DNA of 64,000 nt from an uncultured Acidobacteriota bacterium (lineage in GTDB: Bacteria > Acidobacteriota > Thermoanaerobaculia > UBA5066), in NCBI GenBank assembly GCA_963779415.1, contig CAVZYA010000001.1:416001-480000 (forward strand), read 5' to 3'. Positions 13,003-24,457 of the stretch are shown here, piece after piece (the first letter of the stretch is position 1; the number at the start of each line of letters is the position of its first letter). Made by a program: the position numbers and the translations under genes. Under the pieces are notes generated by a model. It did no database searches and was not told the DNA's origin. It was given only the letters and a program-made list of their open reading frames with translations.

Positions 13003-15377
<2,375 letters not shown>

Positions 15378-15402
15378 CGGAGGCGCCAAGGGGGAGCGGC
15401 GT

Positions 15403-17745
15403 TCAGGTCTGCACGCCCGCGAGGCCCCAGGCCGCTCCCAGCCCGAACAGCAGATCGGCGGACCAGGCGGCGGCGGCGGGCGGAAGCGCCCCCGTCTCGC
15501 CGAGCTTGAGGAAGAGGCCACTCGCGAAGAAATAGGAGAGCCCGAGGAGGATCGCCACGCCGACCCCGGCGACCGCTCCGCGCTTCCCGAAGCGGAAGGC
15601 GAAGGGGAGGCCGACGAGAGTCAGGATGAGGGCGGAGAGGGCGACGGCGGGCTTCTGGTGAAGGCTCGTCGCGAGCCGGGCGACGTTTCCCCCCGCCCTC
15701 CGACGCGCCGCGATGAACCGGGCGAGCTGGGACGCAGTCATCTGGCGCGGATTCGCCTGCACCGAGGAGATCGACTCGAAGGCCTCGGGCGCCTCGAGAA
15801 GGAATTGCCCCTCCCGTGCCATGAAGAGCGAGTCGGCCCCGCCGATGAAGTTCCGGATCCAGCCGTTCTCCGCGAGGAGGCCCTGGCCCGGCAGGACCTG
15901 GGCCCTCGCCGCCGCCGCCCGGAGGCGGATCCGGAAAGTGGCGGGATCGACCTCCACCATCTGGAGGCCCGCGACGCCGCGCGTCTTCGGATCGAACGCG
16001 TCGACGGAGAAGAACCGGCCTCCCTGCCCGCGAACCCACCCGCTCGGGAGCGTCTGCGGGGGAGGGGAGGCTCCCTTCAGCCTGGCCTTCAGCGTCTCGG
16101 ACTCCGCGCTCGCCACGGGAACGACGCGCTCCGCGAGAAAGAAAAGGACGACTCCCGTGCCGGCGGCGAGAAGAAGGATCGGGGCCGCCAGGCGGAAGAG
16201 CGAGATGCCCCCCGCGAGGACGGCCGTCGCCTCGGAAGAGCGGACGAGGGCCGCCACCGTGATGAGGGCCGCCACGAGGAAGGCGAAGGGGAGGATGTCG
16301 ACGAAGATCGGCGGGAGGAGAGCCTCGTAGTAGGCCAGGAGAAGCCGGGCCGGCGGCTTCACCTTCGCGAGGTCGTCGGCGAACTCGAGGTAGTCGATCA
16401 GGACGTAGATGGCGACGAATGAGGCGACGACGAGGGCGAAGACGCGAAGGAACCGTCCCGACACGTAGCGGTCGAGAAGGTTACCGACACGCCTCGGACG
16501 GCGGACGCCGCGAGGCTCCGCCTCTCCGGGCGCCCGGGCGCTCCTCGCGGAGGGGGCGGAGAAAGTCCCCGACCGCTCGCCTCGCCGCAGCGAGATCGAC
16601 GGGAAGAGCGGACGGTCCTTTCGAACCCGGACGAGGGCCGCGACGCCGAGGATCGTCAGAAGGATGTCCGGGAGCCACATCGCCACCGCCGGTGAGACGT
16701 GGCCGTCGATGGCGCGCGCCTCCCCGATGGCCAGGAGCACGTAGTACCCGAGGACGATCACTACGGAGACGACGAAGCCGGCCGCGCGCCCTCCACGCCG
16801 CGTGACGAGGCCGAGGGGGAGCCCGACGAGGCCGAAAACGAGCGCCGCAGCCGGAAGCGCGAACTTCTTGTGAATCTCCACCCACGCGAGGCGTCGCTCC
16901 ACCTCGCTTCGGGCGCCGACCCGGGCCGTTCGGATGAGTTCGCCGAGCCGCTGCTCGCGAAGAAGCTTCTCCCGCGGACGGCTTGCGAGGGCCTCCCTCA
17001 CGCCGGTCTCCTGGAGGAGATACCGGACCGTCCCGAACGAGACGTCGTACTGGCGGGGGTTCGCCCCGACGTGATGGCTCGTCGCGTCGTCAAGCCGGAG
17101 CCAGAGCCGCCCCTCCTCCTCGTCGATCTCGAGTTCCCCGCGCGGCGCCAGTGTGAGCCGTTCACCCTCGTCCCCGGCGGAACGGTCGACGACGAAGAGC
17201 CCGGTGAGCTGCCGCCGGTCGGGGGCCGCGTTCTCAACGTAGATGCTCTTCCCGGCGAAATCGGGGCTGAAGACGCCGGGCGAGATCCGACGGGCCACGG
17301 CGAAGGTCAAAAGGCGAAGCCGCATCTCCGAGAGGAGCCGGTTCCCCCGGGGAACCGCCTCAAGGATCAGTAGCGACGTCGCCGCCGTCACGACGAGAGC
17401 CAACGCGGCGACGGGACGATAGAGCCGCAAAAGGTCGATCCCGGCTGCCCGGAGCGCGATCACCTCCGAGTCGGCGCTGAGCCGCCCGAAGGCGATGAGA
17501 AGCCCGAGCAGGAACGAAATGGGGAGGGTCAGAACGACGATGTGCGGCAGCGAGAAGGCCAGGACGCGAAACGTCTCGGCGAGCGGGTCCTCGCTCTGGA
17601 ACAGAAGGTCGGAGAAGAGGACCACGCCCCGGAGCAGCATGAAACCCGTGTAGGCCAGAAAGGCAACCGCGGTGGGGGCGGCGATCTCGCGAAGAAGGTA
17701 GCGGTCTATCCGCTGAGCGATCTGCACGCCCGATCTTAGCGGCAT
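15403..17745 (-). CDS. Fused LptF-LptG LPS export permease (start may be GTG 17727)
   Basis: Two YjgP/YjgQ-type halves, each starting (I/L)DRY, with D/S.E..A..A.G motifs and HKKFALP / HQKPA; about 12 TM. Confidence 0.9.
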   Translation of the reverse strand: MPLRSGVQIAQRIDRYLLREIAAPTAVAFLAYTGFMLLRGVVLFSDLLFQSEDPLAETFRVLAFSLPHIVVLTLPISFLLGLLIAFGRLSADSEVIALRAAGIDLLRLYRPVAALALVVTAATSLLILEAVPRGNRLLSEMRLRLLTFAVARRISPGVFSPDFAGKSIYVENAAPDRRQLTGLFVVDRSAGDEGERLTLAPRGELEIDEEEGRLWLRLDDATSHHVGANPRQYDVSFGTVRYLLQETGVREALASRPREKLLREQRLGELIRTARVGARSEVERRLAWVEIHKKFALPAAALVFGLVGLPLGLVTRRGGRAAGFVVSVVIVLGYYVLLAIGEARAIDGHVSPAVAMWLPDILLTILGVAALVRVRKDRPLFPSISLRRGERSGTFSAPSARSARAPGEAEPRGVRRPRRVGNLLDRYVSGRFLRVFALVVASFVAIYVLIDYLEFADDLAKVKPPARLLLAYYEALLPPIFVDILPFAFLVAALITVAALVRSSEATAVLAGGISLFRLAAPILLLAAGTGVVLFFLAERVVPVASAESETLKARLKGASPPPQTLPSGWVRGQGGRFFSVDAFDPKTRGVAGLQMVEVDPATFRIRLRAAAARAQVLPGQGLLAENGWIRNFIGGADSLFMAREGQFLLEAPEAFESISSVQANPRQMTASQLARFIAARRRAGGNVARLATSLHQKPAVALSALILTLVGLPFAFRFGKRGAVAGVGVAILLGLSYFFASGLFLKLGETGALPPAAAAWSADLLFGLGAAWGLAGVQT

Positions 17746-17773
17746 CGTTCCGTGCCTCCCGCTTTCTCCGTCT

Positions 17774-17801
17774 ATGTCCGATAAGATTTATTATGTTAAA
17801 T
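17774..17801 (+). other. dif site (XerC/XerD chromosome dimer resolution)
   Basis: ATGTCCGATAA-GATTTA-TTATGTTAAAT has 11-6-11 geometry, and the right arm is identical to the canonical XerD arm. It is intergenic and about 2.4 kb from the gene-strand switch. Confidence 0.92.
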
Positions 17802-17924
17802 TCAAGGACCAGACAACCGAATATTCTTCGAAAGGAAGAACGGGACCATGCCCCGCTCGCCCGAGGGATCCATCGTGCCGGTTCGGTCATGACGGCGGAG
17901 TGGCTTCCCGAAAACCCGTGCGGC

Positions 17925-18833
17925 TTACTTTCGTGGCTGAGCGGGCTTTGTCGGCGTCAGAAAGCGGCCGTCACGTGCGAGGTCGACATCCCCCTTTTCG
18001 ATTCGGCGAATGAGCGACCGAACTGCTTCGAGGATGTCGTCTCGCTTCTGCCCTTTTCCGTGGAAGACGAGGCTGAGCCGGTATCGGCGATCCTCGGGCA
18101 CGTAGTCGAGGCAGTAGTTCTTTCGCAGAGCGCCGTGCTTCGCCTTTTCCGGCCTGGCCGGATTCCTCTTCGCCTCGCGAAGCGTGTCGCGCGTGACGTT
18201 CTCGCCGGCGAGCCAGCTCTTCAGAGCGTCGAGCATGAGTTCCTCGGTCGGGAGCCTCCCGAGCTCGAGGAGGAACGACTTCGAAGCAATGTCGGCGCGC
18301 CGACATTCTTCCTTGACGAGGTCGGGAAGCCGGCCGATCGCGAGCGCTTCGGTCACGGAGACGCGCGACTTCCCGACCGCTTCGGCGATCTGCTCGTGCG
18401 TATACGCCCAGCGGTCCTTGAGGGCCCGGTAGCCGTCCGCCTCCTCGAAAGGCGTGAGGTCCTTGCGCTGGAGGTTCTCGACGAGTGCGACTTCCAGAAG
18501 CTCGCTGTCGGAGAGCTCCATTTCGATGCAGGGAATCTCCGCGAGTCCCGCCTCGATTGCCGCGCGATACCGGCGTTCCCCGGAGACGATCGTGAACCGG
18601 CCGTCCTCGCGGGGCCGGACGAGAATCGGCTCGAGGACACCTCGCGAGGCGATCGACTTCGTCAGCTCCTCGAGATCGCCGAGAGCCGTTCGCGGCTGGT
18701 CGGGATTCGCGTCGATGAGGTGGATTGCGATCCGCCTTCCGACGGGGATCTCGTCTGCGCGGACGAGCTGGTCCACGAAGTGGGAGTCGTGCCTCATACG
18801 CGACGTCTCGGGGAGTCCTCGTCTCCTAGACAC
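17925..18833 (-). CDS. parB: ParB/Spo0J-family protein
   Basis: NPDQPR, SGERRYRAA (CTP-binding GxxRxxA), ENLQRKDL and HTH HEQIAEAVGKSR; AGAGGAG before GTG 18833, overlapping the parA end. Confidence 0.93.
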   Translation of the reverse strand: MSRRRGLPETSRMRHDSHFVDQLVRADEIPVGRRIAIHLIDANPDQPRTALGDLEELTKSIASRGVLEPILVRPREDGRFTIVSGERRYRAAIEAGLAEIPCIEMELSDSELLEVALVENLQRKDLTPFEEADGYRALKDRWAYTHEQIAEAVGKSRVSVTEALAIGRLPDLVKEECRRADIASKSFLLELGRLPTEELMLDALKSWLAGENVTRDTLREAKRNPARPEKAKHGALRKNYCLDYVPEDRRYRLSLVFHGKGQKRDDILEAVRSLIRRIEKGDVDLARDGRFLTPTKPAQPRK

Positions 18834-19590
18834 GGGCCAGTATCTCCTCTGTAAGGCTGTAGTATTCGAGCGCTCCGCTGGAGCGGGGCGAGAACGAGAA
18901 GATCGTCTCACGGTACGCGGGCGATTCCTCGAGCCTCACAGACTTCGAGATCGTCGTCCGGAAGAGCTTCCCCTTGAAGACCGCCTCGATCTGCTTCTTT
19001 ATGTCCTTCCCAAGAGTCGTCCGCTTGTCGTGGAGGGTGATCACGACACCGATGATCTGAAGATTCGGGTTCGGGCGGCTCTTGATTTTTTCGATCGTCT
19101 CCAGGAGATCGTCCGTTCCCTCCAGCGCGAAATACGACGACTGGATTGGGATGAGAATGTGAGTCGACGCGACGAGGGCGTTGACCGTGAGAATGCCGAG
19201 TGTCGGGGGCGTGTCGATGATGATCGCGTCGTAGTCGGGTCCGGCGCCGTTTCCCTTCTGGAGCTTGTCCTTGAGCCGGAAGAGCCCGTCGATCTCCCCT
19301 ACCAGCTTCGATTCGACCTTCGCCACCGAGATCCGCGACGGGGCGACGCAGAGCGAAGGCAGCGTCGTCTCCCGAACGATGGAGGAGAGCGCGACGTCCG
19401 GATCGATCAGGACGTCGTACATCGACCGCTCCACCGTGCGGCGGTCGAGAAAGGACATCGTGGAGTTCGCCTGGGGGTCCAGGTCGACGAGCAGCGTTCG
19501 AAGTTTCTTCTGGGCGAGCGCGGCCGCGACGTTGATGGCCGTGGTCGTCTTTCCGACGCCGCCCTTCTGGTTCGCTATCGTGATGATCAT
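18826..19590 (-). CDS. parA: ParA/Soj-family ATPase
   Basis: Deviant Walker A NQKGGVGKTT, DLDPQAN and IIDTPP; no N-terminal HTH. Confidence 0.95.
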   Translation of the reverse strand: MIITIANQKGGVGKTTTAINVAAALAQKKLRTLLVDLDPQANSTMSFLDRRTVERSMYDVLIDPDVALSSIVRETTLPSLCVAPSRISVAKVESKLVGEIDGLFRLKDKLQKGNGAGPDYDAIIIDTPPTLGILTVNALVASTHILIPIQSSYFALEGTDDLLETIEKIKSRPNPNLQIIGVVITLHDKRTTLGKDIKKQIEAVFKGKLFRTTISKSVRLEESPAYRETIFSFSPRSSGALEYYSLTEEILARV

Positions 19591-19604
19591 GGAGACGCGG
19601 CGGG

Positions 19605-19634
19605 ATGATATTCAGAGCGCGGTCTCCACGGCAA
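19605..19634 (-). promoter_or_regulatory. Putative sigma70 promoter of parAB
   Basis: TTGCCG-N18-TATCAT, 14 nt upstream of the parA ATG. Confidence 0.5.
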
Positions 19635-19663
19635 GCCCGAAGAGCGCCCCGAAGGCGCCTTCC

Positions 19664-20149
19664 TTACATCCGGTACTTTCCGAGTGCGTCCGGGTCGACT
19701 TCCTCGAGCCACTTCCGGAGGCGGGCCGTGTTCGAGCTGTCGCCGGAATCGTCGGTCCGGCGGCTCTTCTCGAGGACCCCCTCCTCGACGAAAACGGGCG
19801 CGTTCGTCCGGAGGGCGAGGGCGATGGCGTCCGAAGGGCGACTGTCCACGTGAACCTCGCGATTCGCGACGCGGAGATGTATCTGGGCGTAGAAGGTATT
19901 TTCCTCGAGTGCGTTGATCACGATACGGAGGACGTCCCCTTCGACTTTCTCGATGACGCTCTTGAGGAGGTCGTGAGTCATCGGACGAGGCGTCGTGACC
20001 CCTTCCATCTGGAGGGCGATGGCGTTGGCCTCGAAAATCCCGACCCAGATCGGCAGGAGGTTCTTCTCGGCATCGTCGCGAAGAATGACGACGGGCATGT
20101 TCGCGATCGGATCGACGATGAGCGCTTTGACTCCCATCCTGACGGTCAC
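19664..20149 (-). CDS. Bifunctional nuclease (DUF151/BFN) family protein
   Basis: LPIWVG.FEA.AI, RPMTHDLL and DSRPSDAIALA; SD AGGAGG. Confidence 0.93.
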   Translation of the reverse strand: MTVRMGVKALIVDPIANMPVVILRDDAEKNLLPIWVGIFEANAIALQMEGVTTPRPMTHDLLKSVIEKVEGDVLRIVINALEENTFYAQIHLRVANREVHVDSRPSDAIALALRTNAPVFVEEGVLEKSRRTDDSGDSSNTARLRKWLEEVDPDALGKYRM

Positions 20150-20170
20150 CAGTTCCTCCTTGTCGATACC

Positions 20171-20259
20171 AATCTAGGGACCGCCGACGCCGATTTCAAG
20201 GAACCGCGACGAAAGCAGAACATTCCTGGAAGTATAAGCTATTTAATATCAAGTACTTA
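20171..20259 (-). promoter_or_regulatory. Sigma70 promoter with upstream IHF-consensus site
   Basis: TTGAAA-N17-TAGATT (20199-20171); TATCAAGTACTTA at 20247-20259 matches WATCAANNNNTTR. Confidence 0.65.
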
Positions 20260-20281
20260 GAGAGCAAGACGAGAGTAATTC

Positions 20282-21625
20282 TCAGCGATTCCCGGCGGCC
20301 TTTCCTGTCCGAAGGAGCCTCCCGAAGAGGGAGTTCGGATGACCTCGCTCGACGAGGACCGTCGCGAAGGTCCCTGGCCGGAGATCCACCTCCGTCTCCA
20401 CATTCGTCACGCGGTTGCACGGCGTCCGACCCGATGGGCGAATGCCGTGCCGGTCCTTCCCTTCCACGAGCACCTCGACCGTCTGTCCCTCGAATCCGCG
20501 GTTCAGCTCGCGCTGGATCTCCTGCTGCCTCTCCATCAGCCGGCCGAGGCGCGCCGCGGAGACGGAGGGCGTCACGTCGCTCACCCAGCGAGCCGCGGCC
20601 GTCCCCGGGCGTGGCGAGTAGCTGAAGGCGAACGCCTGCGCAAAGCGGACCTCTTCGAGAAGCGAGAGCGTCGCCTCGAAGTGAGCCTCGCTCTCCCCCG
20701 GAAAACCGACGATCACGTCGGTGGAGAGGGCGATCGCCGGGACCGCGCGACGGATCTCCGCGACGAGGTCGAGATACTCCCGCCTCGTGTACTGCCTCTT
20801 CATCCGGCGGAGCACCTCGTCGGCGCCGCTCTGGACCGGAAGATGGAGGGCCGGACAGACCCCGGGCGAGCCGGCCATCGCCCGGATCAGCTTCGACGAG
20901 AAGTCCCGCGGGTGCGACGTGACGAAGCGGAGACGCGCGAGGAGAGGAAGCGACGCGACGGCGCCGAGCAGATCCGCGAAGTCCTCTCCGGTCGTCGGAT
21001 CCCGGTACGCGTTCACGGTCTGACCGAGAAGCTCGATCTCGACGGCGCCTTCCTCGAGCAGCCGGCGGCTCTCGTCGACGACGTCGAGGAGCCGCCGATT
21101 CCGCTCCCGGCCCCGCGTGAACGGGACGACGCAGAACGTGCAGTTCTTGTTGCATCCCTCCACGACCGTGATCGCCGCGCGATGCCGGACCTCACGCGCC
21201 ACCGCGCCCGGGGTCCAGGCGACCTCGTCTTCGGGGAATCCCGTCTCGCACGGGCGGTCCGCTTCTTCCCGGACGCGCCGGAGGACGACCGGGAGCGCCT
21301 CGATGCGTCCCGTCCCGAGGACGAAATCGACGTGGGGCAGACGCGCGAGGAGCTTCTCCCCTTCCTGCTGCGCGACGCAGCCCGTGACGCCGAGAAGCAG
21401 ACCCGGCTTCTTCCGCTTCAGACGGGCGAGCCGGCCGAGACGCGCGTAGACCTTCTGCTCGGCCCGATCGCGGACGGAGCACGTATTGAGCAGGATCACG
21501 TCGGCGGCCTCGGCCCCGGCCGCCTCGTGGTAACCGTCCCGGGCCAGAAGTCCGACGAAGCGCCGGCCATCCAGCACGTTCATCTGGCAGCCCCACGTCT
21601 CGACGAAGACGCTTTTCAAGGTCAT
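20282..21625 (-). CDS. miaB: tRNA-i6A37 methylthiotransferase
   Basis: TWGCQMN, NTCSVR, radical SAM CNKNCTFC, HLPVQSG, VGFPGE and a TRAM tail. Confidence 0.96.
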   Translation of the reverse strand: MTLKSVFVETWGCQMNVLDGRRFVGLLARDGYHEAAGAEAADVILLNTCSVRDRAEQKVYARLGRLARLKRKKPGLLLGVTGCVAQQEGEKLLARLPHVDFVLGTGRIEALPVVLRRVREEADRPCETGFPEDEVAWTPGAVAREVRHRAAITVVEGCNKNCTFCVVPFTRGRERNRRLLDVVDESRRLLEEGAVEIELLGQTVNAYRDPTTGEDFADLLGAVASLPLLARLRFVTSHPRDFSSKLIRAMAGSPGVCPALHLPVQSGADEVLRRMKRQYTRREYLDLVAEIRRAVPAIALSTDVIVGFPGESEAHFEATLSLLEEVRFAQAFAFSYSPRPGTAAARWVSDVTPSVSAARLGRLMERQQEIQRELNRGFEGQTVEVLVEGKDRHGIRPSGRTPCNRVTNVETEVDLRPGTFATVLVERGHPNSLFGRLLRTGKAAGNR

Positions 21626-22293
21626 CGGAGCCAGCCGGGAGGCGCTCCCGACTTTCGCGCATCCTCCTCGAGATCGTTGACCTTGGCCCGGGCGTCGTCC
21701 AGCTCCTGGCGCGCCTTCCCCAGCTCCTCCCGGGACTGGTCCCAGGCGGGGCGGATGACGCGGTCGCGGTAGTTCCCGTCGCTCCAGGCGTAGAAGTCGT
21801 TCTCGAGCTTCTTCGTCTCGGCCTCGAGGGAGGCGACTCTCGCCTCGGCCGCCGTGACGCGCCCGTGGGCCTGGCTCACGATCCGCCGCCACTCCGCCTC
21901 GGTTCGCCCGTTCAGGTCCCGGAGCTCGGGAATCACCACGGCGCCTGGCGTGGCCGTCGGCGCCGGCTTCGCCTTCGCGCCCCCCTTGGCGGGCGGGCTC
22001 GCCGGGCTCCCCTTCTTGAGGGTCTCGTTCGAGATCACGCCGAGCGAGGGGCGCTTCCCTTCCTTCTCGCGCTTCTCCTTCTGCTTTTTCGCGATGTCGG
22101 CGAGCGACCCGTTCCCCGTTCCGATCGGCCGAGCGGCGGTCCCGGGTGCCTGCGGAGCCGCACGCGGGGCCGGGGAGGGAGTCGGCGTGAAATCCGGCGA
22201 CGTCGCGGGAGCGGACGTCGATCCCGTCGCCGGCTCCTGCGCGGGCGCCGCGAGCGCCGCAAGCAGAAGTCCGAACGCCGCGACTCCTCTCAT
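21622..22293 (-). CDS. Secreted Pro-rich / coiled-coil hypothetical protein
   Basis: Signal peptide, low-complexity linker and heptad-rich C-terminus ending PPGWLR; ATGA overlaps at both ends. Confidence 0.75.
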   Translation of the reverse strand: MRGVAAFGLLLAALAAPAQEPATGSTSAPATSPDFTPTPSPAPRAAPQAPGTAARPIGTGNGSLADIAKKQKEKREKEGKRPSLGVISNETLKKGSPASPPAKGGAKAKPAPTATPGAVVIPELRDLNGRTEAEWRRIVSQAHGRVTAAEARVASLEAETKKLENDFYAWSDGNYRDRVIRPAWDQSREELGKARQELDDARAKVNDLEEDARKSGAPPGWLR

Positions 22294-22673
22294 GGAGCGG
22301 AACTCCCTTCGCGGCCGTACCGGTCCTCGAGACGGACGACGTCGTCGAGCTCGGGCGTCGAGACCTCGACGAGGAGAACGTCCCCGTCCGGGGCGTGCAT
22401 CCGGTGCCTCGTCCCCGGCGTCACGTGGAAGACGTCGCCGGGCGCGAGTCGGAGATCGGTTCGCGCCCCGTCCCGCTCGACGAGGAGCCCCAACGTTCCT
22501 TCGAGGACGTGGATCGTCTCTTCCTTCCGGACGTGGTACTGGAACGAGAGAGCCTCGCCATGCCGGATCCGGAGGAGTTTCCCGGCGTAGCGCCCCCCTT
22601 CCGCGAAGATCCGTTCCTCCCCCCACGGCTTCGGGACGACCCGCGGCCGCCCGACGGCGAACGGTCCGCTCAT
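22290..22673 (-). CDS. Cupin-domain protein (mannose-6-phosphate isomerase-like)
   Basis: KPWG, LSFQYH..KEET and PGTRHR cupin motifs. Confidence 0.85.
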   Translation of the reverse strand: MSGPFAVGRPRVVPKPWGEERIFAEGGRYAGKLLRIRHGEALSFQYHVRKEETIHVLEGTLGLLVERDGARTDLRLAPGDVFHVTPGTRHRMHAPDGDVLLVEVSTPELDDVVRLEDRYGREGSSAP

Positions 22674-24457
22674 GCGGACACCGCCCTGAGGCGCCGCGAC
22701 GCCGGAAGGAGGTCGCGGAGCTCGAGCCCGAGGAGGGCCGAAACCTCTTCGGGGGTCGAGAGGGAGAGCGCTGCCTTGGCGACCCGCACCGCCTCCGAGA
22801 CGGCGATCTCGCGGGCGAACGCCTTGATGACCGGCACGGCGCGGGGACCCATCGAGAACTCCCGGATGCCGAGGCCGACGAGAAGCAGGAAGAGCTGTGG
22901 ATCGGCCGCCATCTCCCCGCAGACCGAGACGGGCTTCTTCGCGACGCGGGCCGCGTCGGCGACCCGGGCGATCAGCCGGAGAACGGCGGGGTGATCGGGA
23001 CGGAAGAGGTCGGAGACCGTCTCGTTGGCCCGGTCCACGGCAAGCGTGTACTGCGTCAGGTCGTTCGTCCCGAGCGCCATGAAATCGACCTCCGGCGCGA
23101 TGAGGTCGGCCGTGATCGCCGCCGACGGGACCTCGATCATCGCACCGAGCGGGACGGCTTCCGGGACCGGAATTCCGCGCTCGACAAGCTCGGTCCGCGT
23201 CTCGCTCAGCATGGTCCGGACGCGGCGCATCTCCTCCACTCCGGAGACCATCGGGACGAGGATGCGGAGATCTCCCGCCGGTGCCGCCATGAGGAGAGCC
23301 GCGAGCTGCGCCCGGAACATCTCGGGGCGGGCGAGGCTGAGACGCACGCCCCGGAGGCCGAGGACCGGGTTCATCTCGTCGGCGCCGACAACCTGACGCG
23401 ATCCCTTCTTGCCGCCGAGATCATAGGTCCGGATCACGACGGGGCGAGGGGCGAGCCTCCGAAGAACGTCGGCGTAGAAGGCCGCCTGCGACTCGACGTT
23501 GGGGACGTGGAGGTCTCCCGCCGCGAGATAGAGGAACTCCGACCGGAACAGCCCCACGCCGTCGGCTCCGTACTCGAGGACGTCGGCGGTCTCACTCGCC
23601 AGCTCGATGTTCGCGCGGACGGCGATCTCGACGCCATCCGTCGTCTCGGCGGTTCCGCCGACGCTCCGCTCCTTCAGGGACCTCTCGCGATGAGCCTCCT
23701 CGGCCCGGCGCTCGCGGAAGAGCCCGAGGATCTCCTCGGACGGCTCGCGCCAGACGATGCCGTCGCGCCCGTCCACGACGACGCGATCGTTCTCGCCGAC
23801 CGACTCGAGGAGCTTCGCCACGCCGACGACAGCCGGAAGGCCGAACGACCGCGCGAGGATCGCCGCGTGGGACGTCGGCCCTCCCCGCTCCGTCGCGAAG
23901 CCGACGACCCGGTCGCGCGGGATCCGGACGGCGTCGGATGGGGTCAGCTCGTCGGCGATCAGGACGATGGCTTCCCCCGCGAGGTCCTCGACCCGGAGAT
24001 GGCTGTCGCTCTCGTCGCCGAGGTGCCTCCGGACGATCCGTGCCACGTCGTCGAGGTCGGTGGCACGCAGCGCGAGGTTCTCGTCCGGAAGGTCCCGGAA
24101 CCTCGAGACCAGGCCCCGCGCCGTCGCTTCGACGGCCCACTCGGCGTTGACGGCCTCCTGCACGATCCGCCTTTCCACCGGGCCGACGAAGGCGCGGTCC
24201 TTGAGAAACATCGCGTGGGCGTGGAAGATCGCGGCGTACTCGGGCCCCAGCCGGATGGCGACCTGCGTCGCCGTGCTCTCGATCTCCTCGACGGAGGACT
24301 CCACCGCGCGGCGAAACCGCTCCAGCTCCGCGGAGATCTCCTCCGGCTCGAGCTGCCGGTGGGGCGCCGTATCCTCGCGCGACAGCCAGAGGACGGCCCT
24401 TCCGACGGCGACCCCCGGCGACACCGGAATCCCGCTGAGCGACAGTGCCCGCTTCAC
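22670..24457 (-). CDS. ptsI: PTS enzyme I (no GAF domain)
   Basis: GGPTSHAAI phospho-His, GVGLFRSEF, NPVLGLRG, MIEVPSA, GTNDLTQY and CGEMA. Confidence 0.96.
   Translation of the reverse strand: MKRALSLSGIPVSPGVAVGRAVLWLSREDTAPHRQLEPEEISAELERFRRAVESSVEEIESTATQVAIRLGPEYAAIFHAHAMFLKDRAFVGPVERRIVQEAVNAEWAVEATARGLVSRFRDLPDENLALRATDLDDVARIVRRHLGDESDSHLRVEDLAGEAIVLIADELTPSDAVRIPRDRVVGFATERGGPTSHAAILARSFGLPAVVGVAKLLESVGENDRVVVDGRDGIVWREPSEEILGLFRERRAEEAHRERSLKERSVGGTAETTDGVEIAVRANIELASETADVLEYGADGVGLFRSEFLYLAAGDLHVPNVESQAAFYADVLRRLAPRPVVIRTYDLGGKKGSRQVVGADEMNPVLGLRGVRLSLARPEMFRAQLAALLMAAPAGDLRILVPMVSGVEEMRRVRTMLSETRTELVERGIPVPEAVPLGAMIEVPSAAITADLIAPEVDFMALGTNDLTQYTLAVDRANETVSDLFRPDHPAVLRLIARVADAARVAKKPVSVCGEMAADPQLFLLLVGLGIREFSMGPRAVPVIKAFAREIAVSEAVRVAKAALSLSTPEEVSALLGLELRDLLPASRRLRAVSA

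Follow-up and report, generated by a model that had tools for sequence, protein, structure and literature searches.

Chromosomal ParABS is the textbook machine for segregating bacterial replication origins. Here, we describe a second ParA–ParB pair, ParA2–ParB2 (together, ParAB2), encoded beside the dif site at the chromosome terminus of an uncultured Acidobacteriota bacterium. The locus lies in a 64,000-nucleotide stretch of DNA (C1:416001–480000 of GenBank assembly GCA_963779415.1; hereafter the window, whose own numbering is used wherever no contig is named). The source assembly comprises 4.36 Mb in three contigs, with 68% GC and 92% completeness. ParAB2 is a paralogue of a canonical origin pair, it is located at the terminus, and it is linked to dif. 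By analogy to characterized partition systems, we consider it somewhat probable that ParAB2 constitutes a terminus-specific ParABS-like system (ParABS2) that functions alongside the canonical origin ParABS. ParB2 would load at a candidate centromere, parS2, and cover dif, and ParA2 would position the resulting complex. The features on which the argument depends are the following.

17774–17801, plus strand: dif site (predicted), 28 bp, with a XerC-type arm, a 6-bp center GATTTA, and a XerD-type arm, TTATGTTAAAT
17925–18833, minus strand: parB2, 302 amino acids from a GTG start at 18833, a predicted, diverged ParB/Spo0J-type CTPase
18290–18305, strandless palindrome: candidate centromere parS2, TGTCGGCGCGCCGACA, within parB2, over the codons for C-R-R-A-D-I
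18826–19590, minus strand: parA2, 254 amino acids, a small Soj-type ParA ATPase with KGGVGKT
19664–20149, minus strand: gene for a BFN/DUF151 ("bifunctional nuclease" domain) protein, the first gene of the conserved block

A second ParAB pair, distinct from the origin pair

Only two proteins in this genome match the ParB_N domain. One of them, ParB1, is encoded at C2:427 kb within a recF-dnaN-dnaA / yidC-mnmE-mnmG-rsmG-parA1-parB1-atp cluster (C2:414–432 kb) at the GC-skew minimum, and the sole perfect parS in the genome (TGTTTCACGTGAAACA) lies beside parA1 at C2:426158. Because this canonical pair, with its perfect parS, occupies the skew minimum on another contig, ParA2–ParB2 is a true second paralogue. 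The ParAB2 locus is not origin-proximal and has no consensus parS (TGTTNCACGTGAAACA).

The two pairs are well diverged. ParB1 has the N-terminus ALGRGLSAL, the motif GERRARAA, a full match to the helix-turn-helix (HTH) family HTH_ParB, and a ParB_C domain. ParB2 can be aligned to ParB1 over 138 amino acids only, with 49% identity, and ParA2 and ParA1 are 39% identical. In a quick maximum-likelihood tree of 43 ParB2 and 16 ParB1 sequences, the two groups separate on one branch with a Shimodaira–Hasegawa-like approximate likelihood ratio (SH-aLRT) value of 100.

These results support an earlier interpretation of the window, made from its letters alone (hereafter, the sequence-only reading), in which the locus was taken for a second ParAB at the terminus. 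Specifically, that reading called the pair a paralogue, and with all parAB genes, dnaA, and the skew extrema located, the other pair indeed adjoins dnaA at the skew minimum. The reading had seen neither a consensus parS nor oriC neighbors around ParAB2, which is correct, as all of them are in the C2 cluster. The phylogeny that it called for places ParB2 apart from the oriC-type ParB.

The dnaA gene in the C2 cluster (C2:418262–419532) is itself matched by TIGR00362 in two frames, covering model positions 166–431 and 1–164, with neither match above the cut-off. The split is a frameshift or assembly error.

dif and the chromosome terminus

The site at 17774–17801 is taken to be the chromosomal dif, a prediction that draws on several lines of sequence evidence. 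The site is 28 bp long and single-copy: allowing up to 7 mismatches, the 4.36-Mb genome contains no second copy, and no dif-like 28-mer appeared in 100 shuffles of the window. We name its arms after the Escherichia coli dif consensus. Across orthologous loci, dif varies mainly in the center and at the outer end of one arm. The genome encodes the expected partners, including XerD (C1:409959–410822, above cut-off, 24 kb from dif and 6 kb to the left of the window), a XerC-like protein, and FtsK with its gamma domain.

Strand asymmetries converge on the same place. On C1, the cumulative GC skew reaches its maximum at 410 kb and holds level to about 500 kb, and dif lies at C1:433774–433801. In an unsupervised 8-mer scan extending 400 kb to either side, the octamer CGGGGGAG points towards dif 118 times versus 18, symmetrically on both sides. 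The cumulative orientation of the heptamer GGGGGAG peaks at its last plus-strand copy (C1:432814), and its first minus-strand copy is at 436693. The 3.9-kb switch gap between them holds dif, candidate parS2, and parAB2. The corresponding minimum falls on C2 at 419051, inside dnaA. We regard GGGGGAG as a candidate FtsK-orienting (KOPS-like) motif of this lineage. The GC-skew maximum, the heptamer switch gap, and the unique dif together confirm what had been an apparent terminal location in the sequence-only reading. That reading also put the parB stop, at 17925, about 120 bp from dif; the distance is 124 bp, with the XerD-type arm on the side that faces parB2.

Linkage of ParB2 to dif across the phylum

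We examined the locus in 41 relatives, in a class sample (n = 151), and in a phylum sample (n = 201), the latter two restricted to genomes with completeness of at least 90%. The relatives, class, phylum, palindrome, and PF02577 counts include genomes flagged as unpublished (G025, G030, G154, G213, and G302; locus L035 is from G025). None of the conclusions relies on these genomes. We hand-picked the 40 class- and phylum-level loci for a wide range of families, complete genomes among them.

Nearly all of the 41 relatives carry a full-length ParB2 orthologue plus a ParB1-type match. Full-length ParB2 orthologues are present in 151/151 class genomes and 117/201 phylum genomes, and in none of the members searched of some families. 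In ten single-contig genomes from 7 genera, dnaA and ParB2 are separated along the shorter arc by 0.416, 0.470, 0.473, 0.476, 0.486, 0.489, 0.495, 0.496, 0.497, and 0.497 of the chromosome. Whether ParB and dif stay together in orthologues was a question posed by the sequence-only reading, and they do: 59 of 70 orthologous loci have a dif-like site downstream of parB2. Within the order, the linkage holds in 30/30 loci, at 38–1088 bp. Within the class it holds in 19/20, 18 of them within 760 bp and one a weak match at 3.1 kb. Other classes retain it in 10/20 loci. In some lineages, dif is inverted with respect to parB2. parA2 is directly upstream of parB2 in 66/70 loci.

The parB2–dif linkage outlasts the flanking synteny. 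In the class, PtsI is kept in 17/20 loci and LptFG in 18/20. Of the 20 loci from other classes, 7 retain LptFG and 1 retains PtsI; 19 retain ParA2 and 17 retain BFN.

As far as the sequences indicate, ParAB2 is vertically inherited: ParB2 is present throughout the class and in much of the phylum, and it forms one clade apart from ParB1. The ESM Atlas clusters nearest to ParB2 are from Acidobacteriota. A degenerate pattern for the ParB2 N-terminal peptide gave 72/80 hits labeled Acidobacteriota among the matches listed. Likewise, in a profile scan, the full-length proteins among the matches listed are Acidobacteriota-labeled or unlabeled, followed by a sharp drop to ordinary ParBs. The ParB2 family was not found outside of Acidobacteriota in the sampled records, among the matches listed, which is no proof of its absence elsewhere.

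A candidate centromere, parS2

Listing the 16-bp palindromes in all loci revealed one that recurs: TGTCGGC-NN-GCCGACA. In this genome the palindrome exists in a single copy, parS2, 489 bp from dif. A pattern search found the palindrome in 85/201 phylum genomes versus 5/201 for a reversed control. The palindrome tracks ParB2: 84 genomes have both, 33 have ParB2 only, 1 has the palindrome only, and 83 have neither. In most carrier genomes there is a single copy, which shares a contig with ParB2 and is no more than about 1 kb from the gene. In the 53 loci with both elements, the palindrome lies 180–2481 bp from dif (median 574 bp).

The position of the palindrome differs between lineages. In this order and several others, the palindrome is at +525 to +531 inside parB2. 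Elsewhere it is external, either 80–170 bp upstream of parA2 or just downstream of parB2. The internal copy encodes C-R-x-A-D-I, and lineages with an external copy have lost this peptide. The codons within the internal palindrome are nearly fixed: Cys is TGT in 41/44 sequences, in genomes with high G+C content at third codon positions (GC3), Arg is CGG in 41/44, Ala is GCC in 43/44, and Asp is GAC in 40/44. The Ile codon, which extends past the palindrome, is variable. In contrast, Arg and Gly residues of the GERR, QPR, and ENLQR motifs, themselves invariant, are specified by 4–6 different codons. The shifting position, the loss of the peptide, and the frozen synonymous sites argue for a DNA site that acts in cis and against a side effect of coding.

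Some genomes carry arrays. A complete 6.5-Mb genome has five copies within 130 kb (875–1005 kb) that flank parB2 and dif at 928 kb, and no copy elsewhere in that genome. In two further genomes, parB2 is surrounded by four copies spread over 53 kb and by three over 48 kb, respectively. parS2 and parS have the outer TGT/ACA bases in common and differ in the core (CGGCNNGCCG versus TTCACGTGAA). The suggestion that this ParB acts through a DNA site of its own gains substance here, since a 16-bp palindrome that differs from parS appears to be the candidate site of ParB2. Three other imperfect palindromes, detected as inverted repeats in 17600–20300, were dropped; none recurred in orthologous loci.

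The ParB2 and ParA2 proteins

ParB2 matches the Pfam families ParB_N (PF02195, E 1.7e-26) and HTH_ParB (PF17762, E 1.2e-12) and exceeds the TIGR00180 cut-off (145.6 bits versus 58.45). The residues of its cytidine triphosphate (CTP) motifs, Q46-P47-R48 (QPR), G85-E86-R87-R88 (GERR), and E119, N120, and R123 (ENLQR), are invariant in 43 orthologues, and from this conservation we infer that ParB2 probably binds and hydrolyzes CTP and loads as a clamp at a specific site. The ParB2 AlphaFold model (mean predicted local distance difference test score 85.4) best matches the Caulobacter ParB–parS structure 6T1F (Foldseek; template modeling score 0.82–0.85, root-mean-square deviation 2.4–2.6). A profile search of the PDB places the chromosomal ParBs of Myxococcus, Thermus, and Caulobacter, together with Spo0J and Noc, well above KorB. 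The motif and Pfam matches also confirm that, as originally noted, KGGVGKT is intact in ParA2 and that GERR and the HTH are intact in ParB2.

Some sequence matches and motifs distinguish ParB2 from ParB1. Its C-terminus has no Pfam ParB_C match, which ParB1 has, and a strand-strand-helix is confidently modeled at residues 240–280. Its HTH region contains SRxxITE and SKSxLLE in place of DRATVAN and GHARALL in ParB1, a difference that fits a changed DNA specificity. Finally, the N-terminus of ParB2 is indeed unlike the GLGRGL type that ParB1 and 15 orthologues show as ALGRGLSAL; in its place is a peptide, KRRGLP..MRHDxHFVxxL, that is conserved across the phylum. This peptide is absent in exactly the 4 loci that have no adjoining ParA2. 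The coincident losses of peptide and ParA2 support the peptide as a ParA2-interaction element.

ParA2 matches Pfam AAA_31 (E 3.4e-53), CbiA, and MipZ, and its best solved relatives are the ParA/Soj proteins 8RAY, 1WCV, and 6IUB (E 2.7e-51 to 8e-47). ParA2 has the hallmarks of a small Soj protein: a deviant Walker A motif, a length of 254 amino acids, no N-terminal HTH, and a gene directly upstream of that for ParB. Aligned with Soj-type ParA, it keeps the Arg of the "VRL" motif, which we take to be DNA-binding.

A dif-linked gene, probably older than ParAB2

The BFN protein belongs to PF02577 (142.5 bits versus a cut-off of 27, E 5.8e-42) and matches the TM0160 structures 1VJL/1SJ5 (E 8e-31). 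Its C-terminal tail is conserved, with the alignment consensus ..ERLRKWLExLDPEDLGKYxM. The gene is directly upstream and co-oriented in 37 of the 40 class- and phylum-level loci. The sequence-only reading listed this DUF151 gene with the ParAB pair, but the gene is not specific to the module: PF02577 is single-copy in 182/201 phylum genomes, including families without ParB2, and the gene is dif-linked in genomes that do not encode ParB2. In the control for the PF02577 count, matches also came from Thermus, Thermotoga, Corynebacterium, Bacteroides, and Synechococcus. Among 12 such genomes, complete or nearly so, BFN is followed by a dif-like site after about 100–200 bp in 7 and after about 800 bp in 1 (loci L112–L117, L119, and L120; genomes G246, G268, G289, G298, G316, G332, G340, and G323). 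In 4/5 genomes checked, the BFN locus lies at an arc of 0.43–0.475 from dnaA; in the fifth, which has two dnaA copies, the arc is 0.34–0.375. The linkage between BFN and dif is consequently wider and probably older, and ParAB2, where present, sits between the two. The DUF151 gene may be linked to dif or to the terminus in its own right. In listings of the DUF151 literature, plant nucleases and a mycobacterial carbon monoxide-resistance gene appeared, and no dif-related role was among the entries.

Genome G268 has two full-length dnaA matches, both above cut-off, at C1:39127–40437 and 3512952–3514259, about 120 kb apart across the start of its single contig.

A model for ParABS2, and its alternatives

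The model draws on homology with characterized ParABS systems for the binding, spreading, and positioning attributed to ParB2. ParB2 dimers would recognize the parS2 palindrome TGTCGGCNNGCCGACA (TGTCGGC-NN-GCCGACA), and the different core of parS2 would prevent cross-binding between the two ParB proteins. Possessing intact CTP motifs, ParB2 would form a closed clamp at parS2, from where it would slide along the adjacent DNA, and with parS2 only 489 bp away, the ParB2 complex would cover dif. ParA2, a Soj-type ATPase, would be stimulated via the KRRGLP..MRHDxHFV peptide and would use the nucleoid as its track. ParA2 would center a lone ParB2 complex and drive a pair of sister complexes away from each other. 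As a result, dif and the terminus would be kept at mid-nucleoid, where septal FtsK/XerCD could reach them, and the sister termini would afterwards be separated. From these elements we infer that ParAB2 could position and organize the terminus and couple it to dimer resolution.

We advance a broader form of the proposal more tentatively, as a possibility that falls short of a probability. Specifically, the chromosomes of many Acidobacteriota may carry two orthogonal centromeres: parS with ParAB at the origin, and parS2 with ParA2B2, which would actively position and then separate dif and the terminus in the company of an older, dif-linked DUF151 nuclease-fold protein. If so, terminus handling would be driven by a ParA, a task that is performed elsewhere by MatP, FtsK, or passive mechanisms.

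Several observations weigh against a terminus-partition role. The single parS2 in this genome may just as well be an operator. One family has parS2 22–231 kb away from parB2, and dif 3–6 kb downstream. Among ParB2 genomes, 33/117 have no exact palindrome, although some of these carry one-mismatch variants. In 10/20 of the other-class loci there is no dif-like site within 5 kb, and a search for a dif variant in L080–L086 and L088 showed that the most AT-rich 28-mers downstream of parB2 are unlike dif. BFN and dif are neighbors without ParAB2, which implies that the dif neighborhood is conserved for reasons independent of ParB2, and part of the proximity of ParB2 to dif may be inherited synteny. 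One genus with many complete genomes (L044–L046; G059, G092, and G136) has ParB2 by dif without ParA2, without the N-terminal peptide, and without a nearby parS2. There, ParB2 is missing its first ~30 residues, and BFN, ParB2, and dif are contiguous, with dif 100–300 bp downstream. Since this ParA-less genus retains ParB2 beside dif, at least part of the role of ParB2 is independent of ParA. Finally, related genomes are not independent, so the tallies overstate the support.

The ParA-less genus also lends itself to a different explanation, namely that ParB2–parS2 is an accessory or regulatory complex for dif and not a segregation motor, with ParA2 a dispensable modulator. Covering dif from parS2, ParB2 clamps could gate XerCD recombination until FtsK strips them away, or they could bring a condensin, FtsK, or XerCD to the terminus. 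The short distances between parS2 and dif, the tie of a nuclease-family BFN gene to dif across the phylum, and the xerD gene only 24 kb away fit this explanation, as does the retention of ParB2 by dif after the loss of ParA2 and the peptide. We nonetheless judge it rather unlikely. ParA2 is directly upstream of ParB2 in nearly all loci, and the conserved ParB2 peptide vanishes together with ParA2; the palindrome clusters over 50–130 kb resemble centromere arrays, not local accessory sites; and in the family with distant parS2, the palindrome is tens of kb from dif. Less likely still is that ParB2 has no terminus-specific role, and is a KorB-like CTP-dependent autorepressor or an orphan nucleoid protein residing in an inherited BFN–dif gene order. 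Such a role would suit a genome with one palindrome, an operator-like palindrome position upstream of parA2 in several lineages, the BFN–dif linkage that exists without ParAB2, the well-kept class synteny, and the KorB chains among the solved relatives. Conflicting with it are a palindrome that most lineages have within the coding region or downstream of it, the arrays that flank the terminus in some genomes, the survival of the dif linkage where flanking genes have changed, and the retention by ParA2 and ParB2 of all partition-type motifs.

Some dif-integrating elements carry parAB, the gonococcal genetic island being a comparable case, and ParAB2 could in principle have arrived at dif as cargo, on a plasmid or on a Xer-exploiting integrated element (IMEX). 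The GC content of the block, slightly low at 0.61–0.64 versus 0.69 for the window, fits such an arrival. Its GC3 is native-like (0.80–0.85), there is no second dif-like site in the genome, orthologues occupy the same context in 151/151 class genomes, and the best plasmid ParB match has less than 40% identity, with 0 of 4059 plasmid records reaching 60%. The sequence-only reading had argued against cargo from the lack of an integrase or plasmid rep gene, and for the block this is confirmed. We consider such an origin very improbable, and recent entry of an IMEX or plasmid is close to refuted; an ancient domestication is conceivable.

Comparison to known systems

ParAB2 resembles chromosomal ParABS systems (Soj/Spo0J of Bacillus subtilis and Thermus thermophilus; ParAB of Caulobacter and Myxococcus) in its ParA-then-ParB operon, its CTP motifs and HTH, and its 16-bp palindrome with TGT...ACA ends, often inside or beside the operon and arrayed in some genomes. 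Unlike those systems, ParAB2 is at the terminus by dif and not near oriC, and a canonical origin system exists on the same chromosome. The ParB2 palindrome core, N-terminal peptide (KRRGLP..MRHDxHFV versus GLGRGL), and HTH region also differ, and ParB2 has no Pfam ParB_C match. Noc of Firmicutes, which mediates nucleoid occlusion, is similarly a ParB paralogue that coexists with canonical ParB on one chromosome and has a changed DNA specificity, as ParB2 presumably does, and Noc chains are among the best solved relatives of ParB2. Noc is not known to have a ParA of its own; it binds numerous sites, which avoid the terminus, and it possesses an N-terminal membrane helix. ParB2, in contrast, has its own ParA2, encoded adjacently, and one or few candidate sites, at the terminus; it scores 139.3 bits against the Noc model TIGR04285, whose cut-off is 315.

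MatP/matS of Enterobacteria and Vibrio, like other Ter-organizing factors, is comparable in proposed role only: it singles out the terminus in a site-specific manner and links it to division. MatP itself, a small ribbon-helix-helix protein that acts at about 20 matS sites, is not known to be homologous to ParB2 or to have an ATPase partner. Plasmid and secondary-chromosome ParABS systems, such as Vibrio ParAB2 and those of Burkholderia, likewise provide one cell with a second system and its own parS. They serve a separate replicon, near its origin. Here, in contrast, both systems are on one chromosome, at opposite poles, and the nearest plasmid ParB is less than 40% identical to ParB2. Finally, KorB of RK2, a CTP-dependent repressor, shares the ParB-family fold, and the ParB2 palindrome is sometimes upstream of the operon. 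ParB2 matches chromosomal ParBs far better than it matches KorB (E 7e-57 versus 2e-21), and no KorA partner was seen.

In the literature as represented by titles and the opening lines of abstracts, with subscription journals outside of the coverage, we came across neither a terminus-located chromosomal ParABS nor the TGTCGGC-NN-GCCGACA palindrome. A terminus-located, vertically inherited ParABS paralogue in 117/201 genomes of a major soil phylum would offer a concrete handle on how termini are positioned and separated outside of enterobacteria. The embedded parS2 could be removed by synonymous recoding with the protein unchanged, the two ParB/parS pairs constitute a natural test of orthogonality, and the lineage without ParA2 is a natural experiment.

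Other features of the locus

The genes are read leftwards on the minus strand in the order BFN, parA2, and parB2, followed by a hairpin, dif, and a fused lptF-lptG. Between the parA2 stop and the GTG start of parB2 there is an overlap of 8 nucleotides. A consensus scan marked three further features.

17838–17858, minus strand: terminator-like hairpin between the parB2 stop and dif
19605–19634, minus strand: promoter-like site upstream of parA2
20171–20199: promoter-like site upstream of BFN

The region contains 3 terminator-like sites versus 2.4 expected from shuffles, and because this count is near background, the hairpin is weak evidence. The promoter-like sites number 2 versus 0.3 expected, from a consensus scan that provides no evidence of function. 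A scan of 15000–23000 against Rfam gave no match.

The fused LptF and LptG are encoded in one 780-amino-acid open reading frame (15403–17745, minus strand), with TIGR04407 and TIGR04408 both above cut-off. Upstream of BFN are MiaB, a hypothetical gene, a cupin gene, and ptsI. The MiaB-type radical-SAM gene (20282–21620, minus strand) sits between the hypothetical gene and BFN. None of the 40 class- and phylum-level loci has a MiaB gene within 5 kb of ParB2, so its presence here looks like an insertion specific to the order.

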